Shown piece after piece: positions 13,289 to 41,825 of a DNA stretch of 64,000 bases (its first letter is position 1; each line of letters starts with the position of its first letter). The stretch spans positions 1,664,001 to 1,728,000 of the forward strand of contig OZ245002.1 of the NCBI GenBank assembly GCA_965223415.1, given 5' to 3'. The DNA comes from Myxococcota bacterium. GTDB taxonomy: Bacteria > Myxococcota_A > UBA9160 > UBA6930. A program made the translations under genes and the position numbers. The notes below the pieces were generated by a model. It searched no databases. It saw only the letters and a program-made list of their open reading frames with translations, and had not been told where the DNA came from.

Positions 13289-14053
13289 ATGTCCGACGAG
13301 CAGACCCGGGATCCGGGTTCCCTCCCGCCCCACAAGACCCTCACCAGCTACTACGACTCGGATCCGGAGCGAAGCGCCTACGTCCACGATCTCTTCAAGC
13401 GCACCGCTCCCCACTACAACACGATCGAGCGCATCTTCGGCAACGGCGGGCTCGCCTACCGACGCTACTCGCTCCGCTTCAACGGGCTCCGGGCGGGCAT
13501 GAAGGTGCTGGACGTGGCGATCGGCACCGCCGCCGTCTCACGCGGCGCCGTGAAGGAGGTCGGTCCGACCGGCCAGGTCTTCGGCGTCGACCCCAACGAG
13601 GGCATGCTCGCCGAAGCGCGCAAGAACTTCTCGGGCCCGCTCACCCGCGGCGTCGCCCAGGCCCTGCCCTTCAAGAGCGACACCTTCGACTTCGTGACGA
13701 TGGGCATCGCTCTCCGTCACGTCTCGGACCTGAAGGCGACCTTCTCCGAGTACTACCGGGTGCTCAAGCCCGGAGGCCGCGTGTGGCTGCTCGAGGGCCA
13801 CGTCGCGAAGAGCCGGATCGGCCACGCCCTCACCCGCTTCGTCTGGAAGACGGTGGTCCCGGGCCTCACCCTGCTCTTCACCCGCGATCGCGACGCCAAG
13901 CTGCTGATGGACTACTACTGGGACACCGTCGAGCAGTGCGTCCCCGAAGAGCAGATCGTGGAGGCCATGCGGAGCGCGGGGTTCGAGCACGCCCGCGTCC
14001 GGGTGACGATGCCCGGGGCATTCTGCGAGTACAAGGGGCAGAAGCCGGAGTAG
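13289..14053 (+). CDS. Class I SAM-dependent methyltransferase (UbiE/MenG-like)
   Basis: VLDVAIGTA, GVDPNEGML, LPF..DTFD, EYYRVLKPGG. Confidence 0.85.
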   Translation: MSDEQTRDPGSLPPHKTLTSYYDSDPERSAYVHDLFKRTAPHYNTIERIFGNGGLAYRRYSLRFNGLRAGMKVLDVAIGTAAVSRGAVKEVGPTGQVFGVDPNEGMLAEARKNFSGPLTRGVAQALPFKSDTFDFVTMGIALRHVSDLKATFSEYYRVLKPGGRVWLLEGHVAKSRIGHALTRFVWKTVVPGLTLLFTRDRDAKLLMDYYWDTVEQCVPEEQIVEAMRSAGFEHARVRVTMPGAFCEYKGQKPE

Positions 14054-14086
14054 GCACGGGGCCGGTGCAGCGACGGGGAGCCTTCG

Positions 14087-14632
14087 CTAGTCCTCCGCCT
14101 CCCGCCCGCGAAACCCAAGCTCGCCGAGCTTCCGGGCGATATCCTGCCCGGCGGTTCCGACCTGCACCTCCTTGTCGATCGCGCGGATCACGCCTTCGCG
14201 ATCGATGTAGAAGGTCCAGCGGCGGGCGAAGAGGCCGCCGAAGCCGCGCACGCCGTAGGCCTTCGCCGCGTCACCGCTGGTGTCGGAGAGGAGGGTCTGG
14301 GTGGTGTCGAGGCTCTCGGCGAACTCCCGGTTCTTCTCGGGATCGTCGAGGCTCACCATGAACACGGCGGCTTCGTAGGCGGCGAGGTCGGAGGCGCTGT
14401 CCCGCAGCGCCTGGAGCTCCTGGGTTCAGCCGGGAGTGAAGGCCTTCGGGAACCAGGCGAGCACGAGCTCCCGCTGGCCCACGAAGTCCCCGAGCGCGTA
14501 GGTCTTGCCGTCCGAGCCTGCCAGGCGGAACGGCGGCGCGGGGTCGCCCGGGGAGAGATCCGCAGCGGCTGCAGCGGCGACGCCGAGAACGAGCAGGGCG
14601 ACCACGAGCAAGGGGAAGGCGAGTCGCATCAC
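14087..14632 (-). CDS. Selenocysteine-containing peroxiredoxin (BCP/PrxQ type) with N-terminal signal peptide; in-frame UGA at 14426-14428
   Basis: ORFs 14426..14632 and 14087..14365 are in the same frame. The joined protein reads FPKAFTPG-U-TQE, with UGA at the peroxidatic Cys position, then ARRWTFYID. A hairpin follows the UGA and selB is in the window. Confidence 0.9.
14392..14412 (-). promoter_or_regulatory. Bacterial SECIS-like hairpin
   Basis: AGGCGCUG-CGGGA-CAGCGCCU is a perfect 8-bp stem starting 13 nt after the UGA, with G at loop position 2. Confidence 0.8.
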
Positions 14633-14652
14633 CTACCGAGCATAGCCGGGCC

Positions 14653-15294
14653 TCAGAGGTCGACGACCATGAGCTGCACGTGATGGCGGCGGCCCTCCGG
14701 CGAGCGCAGGCCCGGCGTCGGAACCGGGGGCCCGTGGCGGCGGAAGCCGACGCGCTCGAAGAAGCCGATGGCCGGGTGGTTCTCGGCGAGCGTTCCGAGG
14801 TGGCAGCCCGGCGAGCCGCGCTCGCGAAGCCGGGCGAACCAGGCATCCGTCAGGCGACGGCCGGCGCCGCGGCCGCGCACCGGTGCGAGGAGATCGATGT
14901 GGAGATGAGAGGGCCAGCGCGGATCGTCGAGCTCGCCGTCCGGGATGCCCATGCGAAGGGCGTCCACGAAGGACCGCCACAGGAAGCCGGCGGTGCCCGG
15001 GCGAAGGAGCAGGCCGTAGCGCAGGGCGCTCTTCAGGATCGCGCGTTCGGGGCTGGGCGCACGGCGGGTGTCGACGCAGCCGATCAGGTACCCCCGCACC
15101 TCGCCTTCGTGCTCCACGACCCAGGCCGATTCCGGCTCCTCGTCGGTGTAGTAGCCGGACCAGATGTCGGAGAAGCTGTCACGGTGGCGCCAGTAGAAGC
15201 TCGGCGAGGCACCCATGTAGCCGGTCTCGTAGGTGACCCGGCGAAGGCCGGACCGATCGGCGGAGCGATAGGGTCGAACGTCCAGCTCGGTCAC
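14653..15294 (-). CDS. GNAT family N-acetyltransferase
   Basis: SHLHIDLL..VRGRGAGR, N..AIGFFERVGF. Confidence 0.88.
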   Translation of the reverse strand: MTELDVRPYRSADRSGLRRVTYETGYMGASPSFYWRHRDSFSDIWSGYYTDEEPESAWVVEHEGEVRGYLIGCVDTRRAPSPERAILKSALRYGLLLRPGTAGFLWRSFVDALRMGIPDGELDDPRWPSHLHIDLLAPVRGRGAGRRLTDAWFARLRERGSPGCHLGTLAENHPAIGFFERVGFRRHGPPVPTPGLRSPEGRRHHVQLMVVDL

Positions 15295-15299
15295 AGCGC

Positions 15300-18200
15300 T
15301 CAGCGCAGGGCGGCGAGCGGATCCTGGCGGAGTCGCTCACCCACCTGGAGGAATCGCCGTCGGAGCGGCTCCTCTTCGAACGGCTCCGCCAGGGCCGCGA
15401 GGGTCGCAGCCGCGTCCGCGTGGTGCTTCTCAGCCTCCCCGTCGTGGCCCCGGCGTCGGGCCAGCTCGCCGAGCAGCGCGAGGGCGCGCCGGCGGATCGG
15501 CGGGTAGCCGATCGCGTCCGTCGAGGCGAGGGCTTCCCGCAGGCTCTCTTCAGCAGCGCCGCGCTCGTCGAGGTGGAGCCAGGCGCGCCCGCGCAGCTCG
15601 AGGGCGCGGGCGACGAGCTTGGCCGCGTCGTTGCGGCGCGCACCAGCGAGCTCCTCGTCCAGGAGCGGAAGGGCTCGCTCGGGCTCGCCGCGGGCGATCC
15701 ACAGCCGCGCCTCCGCGTCCTGAAGATGGAGCGAGTAGCGCCAGCGCATCCACGGATCGTCGCCCCCGGCGAGGTCGGCGCGAACCGGCTCCAGCACGGC
15801 GTCGGCTCCAGCGAGATCTTCGAGCGCGATGCGGTTGCCGGCCTTGTTGATCGACGCGTTCCCGTGGATCTCGTTGACCCCCGCCACCAGCTCGAGATCG
15901 AGCAGCTCCTGCGCCGTCTCGACGGAGCGGCGATTGAAATCCTCGGCGAGCTCGTCGGCCCCGAGCTCCGCGTGGATCCAGCCCAGGGTGTTCAGCATGC
16001 GCGTGCGCTGGTGACGATCCCCGATGCGCTCGGCCAGCTCGTCCGCGTCGCGGATGAGCCGCAGCGCCTCGCCGTACTGCCCCAGACAGCAATGGGCCTT
16101 GGCCCGGGACCACTGGCCGGGGATCAGGAGCCCTGGCAGGCGGTGCTTGCGTGCGAGCTCGACGCCCTCGGCCTGCGCCGCCGCCGCCTCCCGGTAGCGC
16201 CCGCACCACTCCGCGTACTGACCCTGCAGGTAGCGCAGCACGATCACGACCTCGGGGTGGGTGGGCGCCAGCCGTTCGACCTCCTCGAGCAGCCGATCCT
16301 GCTCCGGGAACTCGGCGACGATCGCATGGCGGAACACCTCGAGGGTCTTTGCGAAGGCGAGCCCTTCGCCGAGGCCGTGCTCCCGAGAGAGCCGCGCGCA
16401 CGCCGCCACCGCCTCGTCCATCTGGGGATAGTGATGGCCCCAGGCGAAGCCGTGGGCCGCACGGCCCAGGTTCAGCACGACGTCGGTGGGATCGTCCGCC
16501 AGCTCGGCAGCGCGAAGAAAGGCGTCGCCGGAGGCCTGGAACTCGCTCATGGCACTGGTGCACATGCCCAGCAGCTCTTCCAGCTCGCGGAGGGTCGCAG
16601 CGGACACCGCCTCGCCCAGCCGTTCGGCGATGGCGAGGGCGCGCCGCGCGTACTCGCGCGCGGACTGGTTCGCAAAGGCCTCGGCGGCCCGCTCGGCCGC
16701 GCGCATGTCGTAGAAGAAGGCCTTGTCCCACTCCTCGGCGGCGGTGAAGTGGTGAGCGAGATGGTCGAAGTGCTCGGCCAGGCGATCGCGGTAGAGCTCC
16801 TCGATCGCCAGGCCGACGAGCCGGTGCAGCTCCTTGCGGCGGCTCTCGAGAACGCTGTCGTAGGCGACGTCGCGGGTGAGCGCGTGCTTGAACATGAAGG
16901 CCAGCTCGGGATGCGCGGCCGTCTCGTAGATCAGCTCCAGGGAGCGGAGCTCGTCGATCACCGGCTCGATGTCGCCGCCAACCGCCGCCGCGTGCTCGAG
17001 AAGGCGGAGCGCGAACTCCCGACCGATCACGGCGCCGAGCTGAAGGGCGCGCTTGGGCTCGTCGGCCAGACGATCGAGGCGCGCCATCAGCACGTCCTGG
17101 ATCGAGTCGGGAACCGAGCCGCCGTCGAGCTTGCGGGCCACCTCCACCCGGCCGGCAACGGGGCGCAGGGTGCCGTCCTCGACCAGGGACTGGATCACCT
17201 CCTCGACGAAGAAGGGGTTGCCCTCCGCCCGGGCGGCGATGAGATCGCGGAGCTCTCCGGGCACGCTGTGGGCGGCGAGGACCTGCTCGGCCATGCGACC
17301 CATCTCCGCCGGGCTCAGGGGCTGGAGCGAGAGGCGAAGGTAGAAGCTGCGATCGCCGAAGGGGTGGCGGTAGCCGGGCCGGTGGGTCAGCACGAGGAGG
17401 ATGCGACTCGCCGGGACGCTGTCGATCACGAAGGCGAGGAACTCCTCCGAGGCCTTGTCGATCCAGTGGATGTCCTCGATCACGAACACGAAGGGCGCAT
17501 CCCGGGCCGCGCGCTGGAGCTGGGCGCGAAGCGCATCGAAGGTGCGACTGCGCCGGGTGGCAGCGTCCATGGCGTCGACTTCCTCGTCGCCGCTCGGCAA
17601 CGAGAGCAGGGTCTTCAGGTAGGGGAGCGTCCATGCGAGCTCGCCGCCGGCCTCGCTCTCGACGCGGTCCATCCGTTCGAGGGCCACGGCGTCGTCGTCA
17701 CCGGAATCGATGCCGAACGCCTGGCGCAGAGCGTCGATGATGGGGTGGAACGGAAAGTCGCGGGCGTAGGTCATGCAGCGACCTTCCGCCCATCGATGGG
17801 GTCGCCCGGCCAGGCTCCGCTGGAACTCGTACCGCAGGCGCGATTTCCCGATGCCCGCCTCGCCGACCAGGAAGGCCACCTGGCCGACGCCGGAAGCCGC
17901 GGAATCGAAGGCCCGCTGCAGGGCCGCGAGCTCCAGCTCCCGGCCGACCAGCGGCGTCAGGCCTCGTTCGGCCTGGGCCTCGACGCGCCCGGGCACGCTT
18001 CGCTCCCGCTGGGCCACGAAGGCGCGCACCGGCTCGGCCTTTCCCTTCAGGTCGAAGCTCCCGCGATCCTCCAGGTCGAAGAAGCCCTCCACCGAGCTTC
18101 GGGTCGCCTCGGAGACCAACACGGCACCGGGCGGCGCGGCCGCCTGCAGCCTTGACGCCAGGTTGGTCGTGTCGCCGACGGCGGTGTAGTCCATGCGCAG

Positions 18201-18827
18201 GTCGTCGCCGATGCGACCGACCACCACCGGGCCGGAGTGGATGCCGACCCGCATGTGCAGGGGCGCGCCGTAGCGCCGGGCAACCTCCTCGGAGAGGGGC
18301 CCGAGGGAGCGCTGAACGGCCAGCGCGGCGGCGACGGCTCGCCGGGGTGCATCTTCCAGGGCGAGGGGCGCGCCGAACAGAGCCATTACGCCGTCGCCGA
18401 GGAACTGGTTCACCGTTCCCTCGAAGCGGTGCACCTGATCGAGGATCAACGCGAAGCAGCGATCCATGATCTCGTGCATCGCTTCGGCACCGATGCGCTC
18501 GGCGAGGGCGGTGGAATCCGCGAGGTCGCAGAAGAGGACGGTGACGTTCTTGCGCTCGCCTTCCATCGCCGCGCGGCTCTGCAGGATCCGCTCGGCGAGG
18601 TGGGCCGGTGTGTAGGCGCTGGGGGCGTCGGGCGACTGCGACGCCTCGCCGGCCGGCGCCGACGCCTCGCTGGCCGGCGTCAGCCGCTCACCACAGGCGT
18701 TGCAGAAGGAGGACGCGGGCGGGTTGCCATGGCCGCAGCTCGCGCAGGCAGCGGACAGGGGCGCACCGCACCCGTTGCAGAAACGGGCGCCGGTCGGGTT
18801 CTCCCGTTCGCAGGCCGAGCAATCCAC
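15300..18827 (-). CDS. Double zinc ribbon / class III nucleotidyl cyclase / AAA(STAND) ATPase / TPR protein
   Basis: N-terminal CxxC pairs, VLFCDL, FLGDGVMALFGAP, GDTTNLASR, Walker A GEAGIGKS, Walker B VIEDIHW, helical repeat C-terminus. Confidence 0.93.
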   Translation of the reverse strand: MDCSACERENPTGARFCNGCGAPLSAACASCGHGNPPASSFCNACGERLTPASEASAPAGEASQSPDAPSAYTPAHLAERILQSRAAMEGERKNVTVLFCDLADSTALAERIGAEAMHEIMDRCFALILDQVHRFEGTVNQFLGDGVMALFGAPLALEDAPRRAVAAALAVQRSLGPLSEEVARRYGAPLHMRVGIHSGPVVVGRIGDDLRMDYTAVGDTTNLASRLQAAAPPGAVLVSEATRSSVEGFFDLEDRGSFDLKGKAEPVRAFVAQRERSVPGRVEAQAERGLTPLVGRELELAALQRAFDSAASGVGQVAFLVGEAGIGKSRLRYEFQRSLAGRPHRWAEGRCMTYARDFPFHPIIDALRQAFGIDSGDDDAVALERMDRVESEAGGELAWTLPYLKTLLSLPSGDEEVDAMDAATRRSRTFDALRAQLQRAARDAPFVFVIEDIHWIDKASEEFLAFVIDSVPASRILLVLTHRPGYRHPFGDRSFYLRLSLQPLSPAEMGRMAEQVLAAHSVPGELRDLIAARAEGNPFFVEEVIQSLVEDGTLRPVAGRVEVARKLDGGSVPDSIQDVLMARLDRLADEPKRALQLGAVIGREFALRLLEHAAAVGGDIEPVIDELRSLELIYETAAHPELAFMFKHALTRDVAYDSVLESRRKELHRLVGLAIEELYRDRLAEHFDHLAHHFTAAEEWDKAFFYDMRAAERAAEAFANQSAREYARRALAIAERLGEAVSAATLRELEELLGMCTSAMSEFQASGDAFLRAAELADDPTDVVLNLGRAAHGFAWGHHYPQMDEAVAACARLSREHGLGEGLAFAKTLEVFRHAIVAEFPEQDRLLEEVERLAPTHPEVVIVLRYLQGQYAEWCGRYREAAAAQAEGVELARKHRLPGLLIPGQWSRAKAHCCLGQYGEALRLIRDADELAERIGDRHQRTRMLNTLGWIHAELGADELAEDFNRRSVETAQELLDLELVAGVNEIHGNASINKAGNRIALEDLAGADAVLEPVRADLAGGDDPWMRWRYSLHLQDAEARLWIARGEPERALPLLDEELAGARRNDAAKLVARALELRGRAWLHLDERGAAEESLREALASTDAIGYPPIRRRALALLGELARRRGHDGEAEKHHADAAATLAALAEPFEEEPLRRRFLQVGERLRQDPLAALR

Positions 18828-37690: not shown

Positions 37691-38458
37691 CTACAGCGGA
37701 CACCCCGCTTCGTTGAGCTCCGCGAAGGCGTCCTTCTGGGGCTCCACGTCCCCGCTGTCGTAGGCAGCCTGGAAGGCTGAGATGACGTCGCTCGTCGTGA
37801 GCGGGTAGGAAACACCCGGGTGAGAAGCGCTCAGGAGCGCCGCGACCGTGTGGCGCAACAAGGCGTCGAGGCCGCCGCCCCGAGCCCGGAGAGCCTCCCA
37901 TAGGCTCAGGCCGCCGACGTCGCGGCCGAACACCGCCGCGAAGTCGTCGCCGGGCGCGAAACCGATCCATGCACCGAAGTGGTGACGCTGCTTCCAGTAG
38001 CCGGGCGTACAGCCCTGGCCGCCGGCGGGCGGCTCTTCGACGGTGACCGTCGCGGTCGCCGTGTCCGAGCAGAGCAGCAGCCCGTTGATGGCCGAGCCGT
38101 CGGCCGTGGCGACGTTCGTGGTCGTGACGCCAATGGTCGCATTGGCCGTGAGGACCACGGACGGAGCGCCCACCGGGATGGGGCCGGTGTTGCCGATGGG
38201 TCCGAGGTGGTCGTCGCCGACGGTGACGTCATCGAGATCGAAGAACGGGTTCACGTTCGAGACGACGTACGTGTAGGTGACGTCGGTCCCGGCCGGAACG
38301 ACGCAGCTCACGGCCGCCGGAACGCCCGCCGCGGAGCAGGTCTTGCTGATCGACACCTCGCAGAAGTCCTGGGCTCCCTGGGCCCAGAGCGGTGCGGCGA
38401 GAAGAGAAGCGACGAGGGCAACAGCGATCGTGAGTGAGGTGCGGAACGGGGTACGCAT
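37691..38458 (-). CDS. Secreted hypothetical protein (Ig-like domain plus GCTPGYWK domain)
   Basis: Signal peptide; VTYTYVVSN...VTVGDD beta-rich domain; GCTPGYWK, LLRHTVAALL, NEAGCPL. Confidence 0.75.
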   Translation of the reverse strand: MRTPFRTSLTIAVALVASLLAAPLWAQGAQDFCEVSISKTCSAAGVPAAVSCVVPAGTDVTYTYVVSNVNPFFDLDDVTVGDDHLGPIGNTGPIPVGAPSVVLTANATIGVTTTNVATADGSAINGLLLCSDTATATVTVEEPPAGGQGCTPGYWKQRHHFGAWIGFAPGDDFAAVFGRDVGGLSLWEALRARGGGLDALLRHTVAALLSASHPGVSYPLTTSDVISAFQAAYDSGDVEPQKDAFAELNEAGCPL

Positions 38459-38592
38459 GGGGGCTCCTTCGGAGATCAATCGGGGTTTCGAGACGATACG
38501 GCAGCTTCGAGATCCGCTCGATTCCTCATTTGGGGGGGGCAGGGGCCGCGGCCGTTGCACATCCCCGCGGGAATTGCTTCCCTTCCCCGGCC

Positions 38593-39873
38593 ATGCTGGA
38601 CCCCCGAAGCCTCGCCGAGCGGCGCGACGAGATCGAGGAGAGCTGCCGGAAGCGCGGCGTCGCCGGAGACGTGGCGGGCGCGGCGGCCCTCTACGAGCAG
38701 GTCGCGGCGCGACAGACCGAGCTGAACGAAGCCAACCGCCGCCGAAACGAGCACCAGAAGGCCGGCAAGAAGAAGCTCGACGACGAGGCGCGCGCCGCCC
38801 ACACCGCCGAGGGCCGAGCCCTCAAGGAGGCGGTGGCCCGCATCGAGACGGAGCTGTCCTCGGGCCGCGCCCGCCTCGAGGAGCTGCTCGGCGCGCTTCC
38901 GAACTTCGTCCACCCGGACGTCCCGGAAGGCGGCGAGGAGGACTTCCGCGAGCTGCGCCGCGTGGGCGAGCCAGCCGCCTTCGACTTCGAGGCCCGCGAC
39001 CACCTGGAGATCGGCGCGCACCTCGACCTGCTCGATTTCGAGGGCGGCGCCCGGGTGGCGGGCAACAAGTTCTACTACCTGAAGAACGGCGCCGTGCTGC
39101 TCGAGCTGGCGCTGCAGCGCTACGCGCTGGACGTGCTGCTCGAGGACGGCTTCGTCCCCTACGTCACGCCGGATCTCGCGCGTCCGGAGATCGTGGCCGG
39201 CATCGGCTACAACCCGCGCGGCGAGGAGACCCAGATCTACTCCCTGGCCAACGCGGACCTGTGTCTCGTCGGGACCGCGGAGATCACACTCGGCGGTCTC
39301 TACGCCGACACCATCCTCGAGGAGGAGGAGCTGCCGCTCAAGCTCGCGGGCATCTCCCACTGTTTCCGCACCGAGGCCGGCGCCGCGGGGCGCGAGAGCA
39401 AGGGGCTCTACCGGGTGCACCAGTTCACCAAGGTCGAGATGTTCGCCATCACGCGCCCCGAGGACTCGGAGGCGATGCACGACCACCTGCTGGCCCTGGA
39501 GGAGAAGATCTTCGGTGGGCTCGAGCTGCCCTACCGGGTGATCGACATCGCATCCGGCGATCTCGGTGCCCCGGCCTATCGCAAGTTCGACATCGAGGCG
39601 TGGATGCCCGGACGGGGGGACGACGGCTCCTACGGCGAGGTATCGAGCACCTCGAACTGCACCGACTACCAGGCGCGGCGGCTCAAGACCCGCTTCCGAC
39701 GCAAGGGCACGAAGAAGAACGAGCTCGTGCACATGCTGAACGGCACCGCCGTCGCCAACTCGCGGGCGATCCTGGCGCTGCTCGAGAACCACCAGCGCGC
39801 CGACGGGACCCTCTCCGTGCCGAAGGCCCTCCAGCCCTACGTCGGCCGGGAGACGATCGGCTCCGGCGCGTGA
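38593..39873 (+). CDS. serS: Serine--tRNA ligase
   Basis: LVGTAE, FRTEAG, GLYRVHQFTKVE, YGEVSSTSNCTDYQARRL, HMLNGT. Confidence 0.96.
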   Translation: MLDPRSLAERRDEIEESCRKRGVAGDVAGAAALYEQVAARQTELNEANRRRNEHQKAGKKKLDDEARAAHTAEGRALKEAVARIETELSSGRARLEELLGALPNFVHPDVPEGGEEDFRELRRVGEPAAFDFEARDHLEIGAHLDLLDFEGGARVAGNKFYYLKNGAVLLELALQRYALDVLLEDGFVPYVTPDLARPEIVAGIGYNPRGEETQIYSLANADLCLVGTAEITLGGLYADTILEEEELPLKLAGISHCFRTEAGAAGRESKGLYRVHQFTKVEMFAITRPEDSEAMHDHLLALEEKIFGGLELPYRVIDIASGDLGAPAYRKFDIEAWMPGRGDDGSYGEVSSTSNCTDYQARRLKTRFRRKGTKKNELVHMLNGTAVANSRAILALLENHQRADGTLSVPKALQPYVGRETIGSGA

Positions 39874-41825
39874 CCCGGGAGAGCGGGAAGGAGGCGGAGC
39901 GCCCTCCGCTCATCCTCGGAACCGCCGGGCACATCGACCACGGCAAGACCTCGCTGATCCAGGCCCTGACCGGTGTCGACACCGATCGGCTGCCGGAGGA
40001 GAAGGCGCGGGGCATCACCATCGAGCTGGGCTTCGCGCCCCTCGATCTCGACGCGGGGCTGCGCCTCGGCGTGGTGGACGTCCCGGGCCACGAGGGGCTC
40101 GTGCGCACCATGGTGGCGGGCGCGGCGGGCATCGACCTGGTGCTGATGGTGGTCGCTGCCGACGAAGGCGTGATGCCCCAGACCCGCGAGCACCTGGCGA
40201 TCTGCGACCTGCTGGGGCTCCGGCTCGGGGTGGTGGCGCTCACCAAGACCGATCTCGTCGACGAGGAGACCGTGGGCCTCGCCCGGGAGGAGGTGACGGA
40301 CCTGGTGGGCGAGACCTGCCTGGCCGGCGCCTCCGTGGTGCCAGTCTCCGCGCGCTCCGGCGAGGGCGTGCCCGAGCTGCGCGACGCGCTCCGCACCGCG
40401 GCCCGCGCCGCCGTAGCCCGCACGCCCCGCACCGGCCCGCCCCGCCTGTGGGTGGACCGACGTTTCGAGATGCGCGGCTTCGGCAGCGTCGTGACCGGCA
40501 CCCTCGTCGGTGCGCCGCTGGCGGTGGGCGACCCGGTGGAGCTGCATCCGACGGGGGCCGTCGGCCGCATCCGCGGCCTCCAGAGCTTCGGCGAGAAGGC
40601 GGAGCGCGTTCGGCCCGGCGCCCGGTGCGCGGTGAACGTGCAGGCCGTCCCCCTCGCCGAGCTCTCGCGGGGGCTGCTCCTCACCCGCCCCGGCGCCCTC
40701 GCACCGACGAGCTGCTTCGACGCGGAGCTGCACTGGCTCCCGGGAGCGCCGCCGCTCGGGGGCGACCCGACCTCGGTGGAGCTGCTGAGCGGCACCGCCG
40801 AGCGCCGCGCCCGCGTCGCGCCGATCGGCGCCGCCGTGATCGAGGCGGGAACGAAGTCCTTCGTCCGGGTCCACGTGGACGGCGAGCCGCTGGCGCTCCT
40901 GCCCGGCGACCGCTTCGTGCTGCGCGGCTTCCACCGCGCCGAGCAGGCGGGCGCGACCCTCGGTGGAGGAGGCGTGCTCGACGTCGCGCCGCCCCAGCGC
41001 CGACGCAGCGATCCCGCGCTGCGGGAGGAGCTCGAGCGGTTGGCCCGGGGCGACCGCGTGACCTCCCTGCTCGCGCGGGTCGAGCGCGCCGGCTTCGCCG
41101 GCGCCGAGACCGAGCGTCTCGCCCGCGAGACCGGCCTCGGCCCGGACGAGGTGCGCGAAGCCCTCGCCGGCCACGAGGACGCCGTGCTGCCTCTGGGGCC
41201 CGAGCGATGGCTGGCCGCCGCCGCCGAGCAGGAGCTCGCCCGCCGCTTGCGCGTCGCCCTCAGCGCCTTCCACGATCGCCGGCCCCTGGAACCGGGCATG
41301 CCCCGTGCGACGCTCGGCGGCGCGCTCCCGCCGAACGTGCCCGGCGCCGCCTTCGAGCGACTCCTGGAGCGACTCGCGTCCGACGGCCGCATCGAGCTGG
41401 AGGAGAAACTCGTGCGCGCCGGCGATTTCGTGCCGCGCCTGAGCCAGCGGCAAGAGGCCCTCGCCGCCCGCCTCCGCGCCGACGCCATGATCGCAGGCCT
41501 CGAGCCGCCGACCCTGGCCGAGTGGAGCACCGAGCTCGGCGCCAGCGAGGACGAGCTGCGCCCGGTCCTCGCCCACCTGGAGCGCGACGGCTCCCTCACC
41601 CGCGCCCCCGGCGAGCTGTGGTTCGACCGGGTGGCCGTGGACGAGCTGCGCGCGCAGGTCACGGCCCATCTCGAGGCCCACGGCCAGCTTCCGACCCCGG
41701 CCTACAAAGAGATGATCGGGACCACCCGCAAGTACGCCGTCCCCCTGATGGAGCTCTTCGACGCCGAGCACCTGACAGTGCGCCGGGGGGAGGCACGGGT
41801 GCTGCGCCGGAGGCCGTCCAGCTAG
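39870..41825 (+). CDS. selB: Selenocysteine-specific translation elongation factor
   Basis: GTAGHIDHGKT, EEKARGITIELGF, DVPGHE, GVMPQTREH, C-terminal winged-helix TRKYAVPLMELFD; GTGA overlap with serS. Confidence 0.96.
   Translation: MTRESGKEAERPPLILGTAGHIDHGKTSLIQALTGVDTDRLPEEKARGITIELGFAPLDLDAGLRLGVVDVPGHEGLVRTMVAGAAGIDLVLMVVAADEGVMPQTREHLAICDLLGLRLGVVALTKTDLVDEETVGLAREEVTDLVGETCLAGASVVPVSARSGEGVPELRDALRTAARAAVARTPRTGPPRLWVDRRFEMRGFGSVVTGTLVGAPLAVGDPVELHPTGAVGRIRGLQSFGEKAERVRPGARCAVNVQAVPLAELSRGLLLTRPGALAPTSCFDAELHWLPGAPPLGGDPTSVELLSGTAERRARVAPIGAAVIEAGTKSFVRVHVDGEPLALLPGDRFVLRGFHRAEQAGATLGGGGVLDVAPPQRRRSDPALREELERLARGDRVTSLLARVERAGFAGAETERLARETGLGPDEVREALAGHEDAVLPLGPERWLAAAAEQELARRLRVALSAFHDRRPLEPGMPRATLGGALPPNVPGAAFERLLERLASDGRIELEEKLVRAGDFVPRLSQRQEALAARLRADAMIAGLEPPTLAEWSTELGASEDELRPVLAHLERDGSLTRAPGELWFDRVAVDELRAQVTAHLEAHGQLPTPAYKEMIGTTRKYAVPLMELFDAEHLTVRRGEARVLRRRPSS

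Follow-up and report, generated by a model that had tools for sequence, protein, structure and literature searches.

In a 64,000-nucleotide stretch of DNA from a Myxococcota bacterium (contig OZ245002.1; hereafter the window), a peroxiredoxin gene on the minus strand, at 14632/14629..14087, runs through an in-frame TGA at its catalytic codon. We read it, with a probability of about 85%, as a single intact gene for an exported, cysteine-free peroxiredoxin (Prx) of the BCP/AhpE-like type with a peroxidatic selenocysteine (Sec). The gene is real, was missed by gene callers, and belongs to a long-known selenoprotein family. Judged from sequence comparison, its catalytic residue is almost certainly Sec, inserted by recoding of the TGA.

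Gene structure and the hairpin downstream of the UGA

Two open reading frames in the same frame are fused across a single TGA (14428-14426) into one uninterrupted AhpC/TSA peroxiredoxin frame, which starts at ATG 14629 (180 residues) or GTG 14632 (181 residues) and ends at TAG 14089-14087. Translated with TGA as U, the product (14087..14632) carries the active-site motif FPKAFTPG-U-TQE. The in-frame UGA (14426..14428, minus strand), which aligns with the TGA or TGC of orthologues, occupies the peroxidatic position of P-x-x-x-T-x-x-U, and corresponds to U69 counted from the GTG or Sec68 counted from the ATG. The precursor contains no cysteine (Cys). An earlier note on this DNA had proposed the fusion through 14426-14428, with 181 residues, the motif PKAFTPG-U-TQE, no Cys and a TAG stop, all of which holds on the minus strand, a detail the note left unstated. 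It had also predicted that standard pipelines would split the gene, and an exact look-up of the public gene calls indeed returned two separate proteins, a 67-residue N-terminal one (ATG 14629 to TGA) and a 90-residue C-terminal one (ATG 14359 to TAG).

The GC content at codon positions 1/2/3 is 0.73/0.48/0.90 across the gene, in agreement with the flanking genes, and is unbroken through the TGA and through the 60 nt that separate it from the next start codon downstream. The source genome is a single 5.83-Mb contig in which TGA is the commonest stop, terminating 1,282 of 2,257 long frames with high GC at the third codon position, and a genome-wide reassignment of TGA is therefore excluded. Full-length Cys relatives bear the public names 'peroxiredoxin Q/BCP' and 'thioredoxin-dependent peroxiredoxin'. 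In three JGI-derived records of close relatives (P0003, P0006 and P0009), whose mature part is Cys-free, a Trp is printed at the active site (FTPGWTQEL), and is most likely a TGA mistranslated by the gene caller.

A hairpin, AGGCGCUG-CGGGA-CAGCGCCU (14392..14412, minus strand), is formed by the A-L-R-D-S-A codons of the active-site helix, with the 5' arm at 14412-14405, the loop at 14404-14400 and the 3' arm at 14399-14392. It begins 13 nt past the UGA and has eight perfect pairs and a 5-nt CGGGA loop, exactly as the note had described it, and in isolation (14412..14392) it folds at -13.7 kcal/mol. The model of the bacterial Sec insertion sequence (bSECIS) given in the legend of Fig. 2 of PMC13188914 asks for a loop of 3-9 nt, a stem of 4-16 bp, a G at loop position 1-2 followed by G or U, a UGA-to-loop distance of 16-37 nt and a minimum free energy <= -7.5. 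The CGGGA loop, the 8-bp stem, the UGA-to-loop distance of 21 nt and the folding energy all lie within these limits. This geometry is rare, since a perfect stem of at least 8 bp with a 5-nt NG[GU]NN loop at 16-37 nt follows 39 of the 89,706 TGA triplets in the genome (78 of 89,706 when the stem may be 7 bp or longer), and here it coincides with the catalytic codon of a peroxiredoxin.

Conservation among relatives and the selenocysteine machinery

To define the orthologue set, 61 related genomes were searched with read-through of TGA, which gave 27 loci with 45-78% identity. The same codon is TGA in 26 of these and TGC in the remaining one (G060), in a genome where selA is present, so that loss of the Sec trait is rejected as the cause of this Cys form. 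One relative (G025) holds a second TGA-bearing copy of the family beside its orthologue (G025:C15:123330-123773, 53% identity).

The inner five pairs of the hairpin are formed in all 26 TGA orthologues; one pair alternates between G-C and G-U wobble, and three outer pairs are changed on both sides. The covariation score, 0.113 versus 0.071 for shuffled alignments, was reached by none of 500 shuffles, and sliding the pairing partner makes the pairing collapse. The family consensus is a 7-bp stem with the loop CG[U/G]GA, the eighth pair (A-U) being found in only 5 of the 26 sequences. The codons that form the hairpin are synonymously frozen among 24 orthologues, a count that leaves out the Cys form (L025), a sequence that contains N (L037) and one cut by a contig end (L039): Ala is GCG in 22/22, Leu CTG in 24/24, Asp GAC in 24/24, Ser AGY in 24/24 and the other Ala GCC in 22/23, while the loop Arg is CGU in 19 and CGG in 5, and never CGC. 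Equally conserved Ala and Leu columns outside the hairpin use 2-5 codons.

The comparison was extended to species-representative genomes (at least 597 relatives), of which the best 80 of at least 597 loci were analysed. These come from Myxococcota/'Deltaproteobacteria', Planctomycetota, Acidobacteriota, Verrucomicrobiota, Methylomirabilota, Sumerlaeota, one gammaproteobacterium and Kuenenia, and the two sets overlap, since seven of these loci recur in identical form in the orthologue set. Among the best 80, 34 have TGA and 46 have TGC or TGT at the catalytic codon. With the register fixed, at least six of the seven stem pairs are formed in 31/34 TGA forms versus 5/46 Cys forms, and all seven in 23/34 versus 0/46; the 31 well-paired TGA forms comprise 18 distinct stem variants. 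The loop is CGUGA or CGGGA in 31 of the 34 TGA forms, and most often CGCGA in the Cys forms. Pairing, synonymous sites and the contrast between Sec and Cys forms are three independent lines of evidence, and taken together this comparison of sequences is decisive, beyond chance, for a predicted SECIS element.

Sequencing contigs were also inspected, since TGC or TGT in the reads had been named in the earlier note as a possible refutation. One contig, which belongs to a related organism and occurs in runs from two samples of a single study, spans 14345-14488 and differs at 18 positions, none of them within 14426-14428; its changes at 14412 and 14392 convert the outermost A-U pair to C-G, and that at 14402 converts the loop to CGUGA. 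A second contig spans the whole stretch without differences. Neither TGC nor TGT was seen at the codon in these contigs, the best-matching of which may be the assembly's own source.

The two fragments in the public gene calls and the unexceptional folding energy of the hairpin (see below) are what would be expected of a dead gene, in which a nonsense mutation or a base-call error had turned TGC or TGT into TGA. This explanation is effectively refuted by the TGA shared at the same codon by nearly all of the independently assembled orthologues and by 34 of the best 80 wider loci, by the protein conservation and codon-position GC signature that persist downstream of the TGA, and by the contig that differs at 18 positions with its TGA intact.

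The Sec machinery is complete. The window itself contains selB (39909..41825, plus strand; NCBIfam TIGR00475, 288.3 bits versus a cut-off of 242.25), which scored 267 bits in the genome-wide search and lies 25.5 kb from the peroxiredoxin gene, in line with the distance of about 25 kb noted earlier. Genome-wide, selA (497 bits) and selD (253 bits) both score over curated cut-offs, and a tRNA-SeC(tca) (selC) was found; the absence of these three genes, another refutation proposed beforehand, is thus contradicted. Directly ahead of selB, and sharing its strand, stands the seryl-tRNA synthetase gene serS (38434-39873, plus strand, 442 bits), an arrangement that places the enzyme that charges tRNA-Sec beside the factor that delivers it. 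Among the 61 related genomes, selA was found in 54. Of the 26 that carry the TGA form, 25 gave a selA match and one, G011, did not, its genome being 85% complete. Of the seven in which selA gave no match, six also have no orthologue of the peroxiredoxin family.

The same genome contains six more AhpC/TSA-superfamily genes with an in-frame TGA at the redox motif, all outside the window and on the minus strand (G000:C1:48831-49202, 1320654-1321052, 1621435-1621833, 4270914-4271303, 2980532-2980915 and 1053804-1054022). A second TxxU peroxiredoxin (FTPGUTIEARDF) is among them; the other five belong to the UxxC 'Prx-like thiol:disulfide oxidoreductase' type, and N-terminal membrane segments are present in three of these five; a hairpin follows shortly past the UGA in all six. 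The genome looks selenoprotein-rich.

It could still be argued that translation of the peroxiredoxin gene mostly ends at the UGA, or continues past it with a near-cognate tRNA such as that for Trp or Cys, mainly yielding a 67-residue peptide or a protein without Sec, in which case the hairpin would have a different role, for example in mRNA stability or in translational pausing for export. SelB-dependent decoding is inefficient, three public records print W at the active site, and Sec insertion is here deduced from sequence. The W records are gene-caller translations and not protein data, and several features are difficult to reconcile with a stop or a near-cognate residue: the hairpin accompanies TGA and decays where the codon is Cys, it fits the bSECIS model down to the G[G/U] dinucleotide of the loop, the Sec machinery co-occurs with the TGA form, and strong purifying selection acts on the domain, although an enzyme with a peroxidatic Trp would have no activity. 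We consider such an outcome very unlikely. The reading of the gene as a selenoperoxiredoxin (Sec-Prx), with a peroxidatic Sec and a SECIS element, is supported by the full Sec machinery and by the UGA and hairpin, which are both kept in close homologues; their loss there had been the remaining refutation envisaged in the note.

Fold, active-site clade and N-terminal segment

The protein matches Pfam AhpC-TSA (PF00578) over residues 28-151 (2.1e-28, 99.2 bits versus a cut-off of 26). P61, T65, U68 and R137 (ATG numbering) are invariant across 25 orthologues, and R137 aligns with the Arg of Bcp1 (3drn). The AlphaFold2 model, built on the orthologue alignment, has a Prx fold with a predicted local distance difference test (pLDDT) score of 91.6, and its top Foldseek matches are all peroxiredoxins, with E-values down to 1e-16. 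The closest solved structures, determined from a profile of the 25 orthologues and from Foldseek, are Sulfolobus solfataricus Bcp1/Bcp4, Mycobacterium tuberculosis BcpB and the 1-Cys AhpE; in the profile, archaeal Bcp1/Bcp4 are nearest and M. tuberculosis AhpE comes next. The protein is therefore nearest to BCP/AhpE by structure, without being a BCP/PrxQ equivalog.

In BCP/PrxQ proteins a resolving Cys stands five residues past the peroxidatic Cys, in part of the subfamily only, and in E. coli BCP it is at +5. The window protein, having no Cys, lacks such a residue, and the earlier statement that there is no resolving Cys proves correct for this protein and throughout its clade. A maximum-likelihood tree was built by a quick method from 106 loci, of which 99 are distinct because seven rows are duplicated between the sets, and the Sec column was treated as a gap. 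The tree halves the family according to the residue at +4 after the active site, which is Leu (once Met) in one half and Cys, one position earlier than in E. coli BCP, in the other. The half without the +4 Cys contains the window gene and comprises 46 Sec and 7 Cys forms, the latter being one nested clade, whereas the half with it (U/C-T-x-E-C) comprises 13 Sec and 40 Cys forms. At least four switches between Sec and Cys and two changes at +4 are required. Among the best 120 full-length public protein records, 118 matched the motif pattern, with 81 C..L forms, 29 C..C forms and three with W at the active site. Exactly one Cys is present in the mature part of 80 of the 81 C..L forms, and the window's clade is therefore a true 1-Cys/1-Sec group.

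The apparent enrichment of Sec in the Cys-free half is no population estimate, and we do not regard it as firm: the 80 wider loci were selected as top matches to a query rich in Sec, the public records hold many 1-Cys forms (81/118), and a tree that needs only two changes at +4 and four between Sec and Cys gives no statistical power for it. In the sister half, loci L061-L122 (from Planctomycetota, Acidobacteriota and others) have the +4 Cys within U/C-T-x-E-C-K. The 13 sister-half loci that combine Sec with this Cys could form a selenenylsulfide.

The first ~23 residues, MRLAFPLLVVALLVLGVAAAAAA (14561..14629, minus strand), lie N-terminal to the AhpC-TSA domain and outside it, and resemble a signal peptide. 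By inspection, they comprise a basic n-region, a hydrophobic h-region and an Ala-rich c-region, and the first 20 residues have low confidence in the AlphaFold2 model (pLDDT 58-61). An equivalent segment is present in all 25 orthologues, the Cys form included, with a short basic n-region, an h-region of 12-15 residues and small residues at -3/-1, despite low identity in this part of the protein. A signal peptidase I site is likely within or after the Ala run, before DLSPGD, and these features suggest that the peroxiredoxin is exported to the cell envelope.

The c-region, a run of six Ala, offers no unique cleavage site, as would be the case if the hydrophobic segment were an uncleaved membrane anchor, or no export signal at all, and the enzyme were membrane-tethered or cytoplasmic instead of soluble in the periplasm. 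We regard this as rather improbable, given that the n-, h- and -3/-1 features recur in 25/25 orthologues despite the low local identity, that the structures of cytoplasmic BCP proteins begin where the N-terminal extension stops, and that a comparable 20-residue signal sequence is described for PprX (PMC3322552).

Proposed mechanism, electron donors and related systems

In the mechanism that we propose, SelB carrying Sec-tRNA(Sec) would bind the hairpin downstream of the UGA (14428-14426), so that Sec is inserted instead of termination. The N-terminal ~23 residues would direct general secretory (Sec-type) export, and would probably be cleaved. In the envelope, the selenolate, held in the Pro61/Thr65/Arg137 pocket, would reduce H2O2 or organic hydroperoxides and be converted to selenenic acid, as expected from knowledge of the family. 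Since the mature enzyme is Cys-free, the selenenic acid needs an external thiol, by which it would be resolved as in Sec-glutathione peroxidases and 1-Cys peroxiredoxins.

Several results weigh against an exported Sec-Prx encoded by this gene. The 62-nt stretch containing the hairpin folds no better than shuffled sequences (z = 0.45; 132 of 200 shuffles at least equal), and as folding energy is non-significant in this 70% GC DNA, it was not used as evidence. When the whole window was scanned against Rfam, no family reached its gathering score. As the sequences share ancestry, their independence is overstated by the orthologue counts and by the Mann-Whitney p of 5e-13 for the contrast in stem pairing between TGA and Cys forms. 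Export is judged by eye from the N-terminal sequence. All NCBIfam peroxiredoxin equivalog cut-offs are missed by the protein (14087..14632), which scores 77.6 bits versus 140 for Bcp (NF006960), 60.7 versus 260 for PrxQ (NF053650), 33 versus 270 for the PrxU selenoprotein (NF040737) and 21.3 versus 298 for the Prx-SUH selenoprotein (NF045827). Finally, no neighbouring gene is conserved as a redox partner, as none recurs in more than 12 of 107 loci; the best non-self cluster, a Zn-dependent alcohol dehydrogenase (12/107 loci), does not indicate a reductant.

The scores below the equivalog cut-offs, the lack of a resolving Cys and the lack of a conserved partner in the 107 loci would also suit a Sec-containing protein of Prx fold that is not mainly a peroxide scavenger, and acts instead as an envelope redox sensor or relay, or as a reductase acting on other oxidants, for instance peroxynitrite or sulfenylated proteins. 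Deletion of the exported PprX in Caulobacter is reported to give no peroxide phenotype (PMC3322552). The invariant Pro/Thr/Sec/Arg peroxidatic constellation, together with nearest structures that are all thiol peroxidases, makes such a role unlikely, and points to peroxidase activity of the exported Sec-Prx, a function predicted from its sequence.

An operon-encoded reductant is rejected, as no redox gene stands beside the peroxiredoxin gene here and none recurs in more than 12 of the 107 loci; the recurrent neighbours with a Pfam match are the Zn-dependent alcohol dehydrogenase, an acyl ligase, an enoyl-CoA hydratase and an amidohydrolase. In the window, the flanking genes encode a GNAT acetyltransferase, a UbiE-type methyltransferase and an adenylate cyclase/AAA/TPR protein. 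The last is a 1,175-residue protein encoded upstream (15300-18827, minus strand), with a double zinc ribbon, an adenylate/guanylate cyclase domain, an AAA_16 ATPase and TPR repeats, and is followed by the GNAT acetyltransferase gene, whose stop is 20 nt from the start of the peroxiredoxin gene.

A scan of 13950-14800 for consensus promoters and terminators gave no match. Upstream of the start (14633-14652, minus strand) there is a TAnnnT hexamer, here TATGCT, and when upstream regions (L019-L034) were compared, 15 of 25 orthologues were found to have such a hexamer starting 12-15 nt ahead of the ATG, a spacing compatible with a leaderless mRNA or one with a very short leader. In three relatives of the same genus the hexamer lies farther out (-24/-25), and is followed by an AGGAGG Shine-Dalgarno sequence.

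The genome contains two genes of the DsbD_TM/CcdA type, each beside a thioredoxin-fold gene. One of the UxxC selenoprotein candidates is encoded just downstream of the first transporter (G000:C1:1621435-1623370, minus strand), ~41 kb before the start of the window, while the second DsbD_TM gene (C1:4716639) is followed by a WCAPC TlpA/ResA-like gene; both loci are possible routes for reductant to the envelope. By analogy with the PprX-TlpA-ScsB system, the reductant of the Sec-Prx may be a thioredoxin-fold envelope reductase fed by a CcdA/DsbD-type transporter, a proposal to which we give a little less than even odds, with a small thiol as the alternative.

The earlier note overstated the novelty of the gene, as Sec-Prx proteins of the TxxU type are a catalogued family. 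They were catalogued in 2005/2006 by Zhang and Gladyshev. The family (COG1225/PF00578) is tabulated among the experimentally founded bacterial selenoproteins (PMC9312934, PMC13188914), comes second in abundance among the known selenoprotein families of the Sargasso Sea set (43 genes; PMC1088965), and by 2006 had three members listed for Anaeromyxobacter dehalogenans, also a myxobacterium (PMC1794560, Table 3). The window protein shares with this family the AhpC/TSA fold, the peroxidatic Sec in PxxxTxxU, a SECIS element just 3' of the UGA and widespread Cys homologues. The founding member is reportedly PrxU of Eubacterium acidaminophilum (Söhling 2001), from which the window protein differs, as its score on the PrxU equivalog model shows. 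It is set apart from the catalogued proteins by its signal-peptide-like N-terminus and Cys-free mature part. Literature searches and the passages searched in PMC1794560, PMC1088965, PMC9312934 and PMC13188914 gave no mention of a signal peptide or of a Cys-free Sec-Prx, which is a statement about what was searched and not a claim of absence from print, and a term look-up for 'periplasm' and 'secreted' in a 2026 selenoproteome review gave no match.

The closest analogy is offered by PprX, an exported peroxiredoxin of the BCP/PrxQ type from Caulobacter crescentus, which receives its electrons from TlpA, with ScsB or DsbD as the reductant of TlpA in turn (Cho et al. 2012, PMC3322552). The window protein shares its BCP/PrxQ-like type, and its own signal-like N-terminus would correspond to the ~20-residue signal sequence of PprX; a similar supply of electrons in the envelope is plausible here. 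In contrast, PprX has a peroxidatic and a resolving Cys, whereas the window protein has Sec and is Cys-free. PprX homologues are reported in alpha- and betaproteobacteria and cyanobacteria (PMC3322552), while the present family ranges over Myxococcota, Planctomycetota, Acidobacteriota, Verrucomicrobiota and others.

M. tuberculosis AhpE and the archaeal Bcp1/Bcp4 are ~30% identical to the window protein, with TM-scores of 0.72-0.74 (normalised to model length), and AhpE has, like it, a single catalytic residue (a Cys) and needs an external thiol partner. These proteins differ in being cytoplasmic, in using Cys and in having no signal peptide. Sec-glutathione peroxidases are a separate family of the thioredoxin-fold superfamily with a different catalytic constellation. 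They have no detectable sequence relationship to the window protein, and are a mechanistic analogue only, similarly without a resolving Cys in the enzyme. In these enzymes the selenolate becomes selenenic acid and is regenerated by external thiols, and selenium resists irreversible overoxidation (PMC8533274).

The established picture of Sec-Prx proteins is unchanged by this gene. What it illustrates is that a functional gene can be stored publicly as two meaningless fragments, or with a Trp at the active site, and that the family offers an unusually clean natural experiment in SECIS evolution, as among its orthologous members the hairpin accompanies UGA and has decayed in the Cys forms. Few studies have dealt with exported peroxiredoxins, PprX being the sole characterised case found in the literature searched, and a Cys-free exported Sec-Prx raises the question of what reduces selenenic acid in the bacterial envelope. 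A tentative proposal, which we hold to be doubtful, is that the clade consists of periplasmic, glutathione peroxidase-like '1-Sec' peroxiredoxins in which Sec replaces the protection given by a resolving Cys, and that the reductant could be a membrane-anchored UxxC selenoprotein fed by CcdA/DsbD. If this were true, Sec would prevent irreversible overoxidation without an intramolecular partner, in a compartment with scarce reductant and no repair enzyme, and the UxxC reductant and the Sec-Prx would together form an all-selenium peroxide relay in the envelope.

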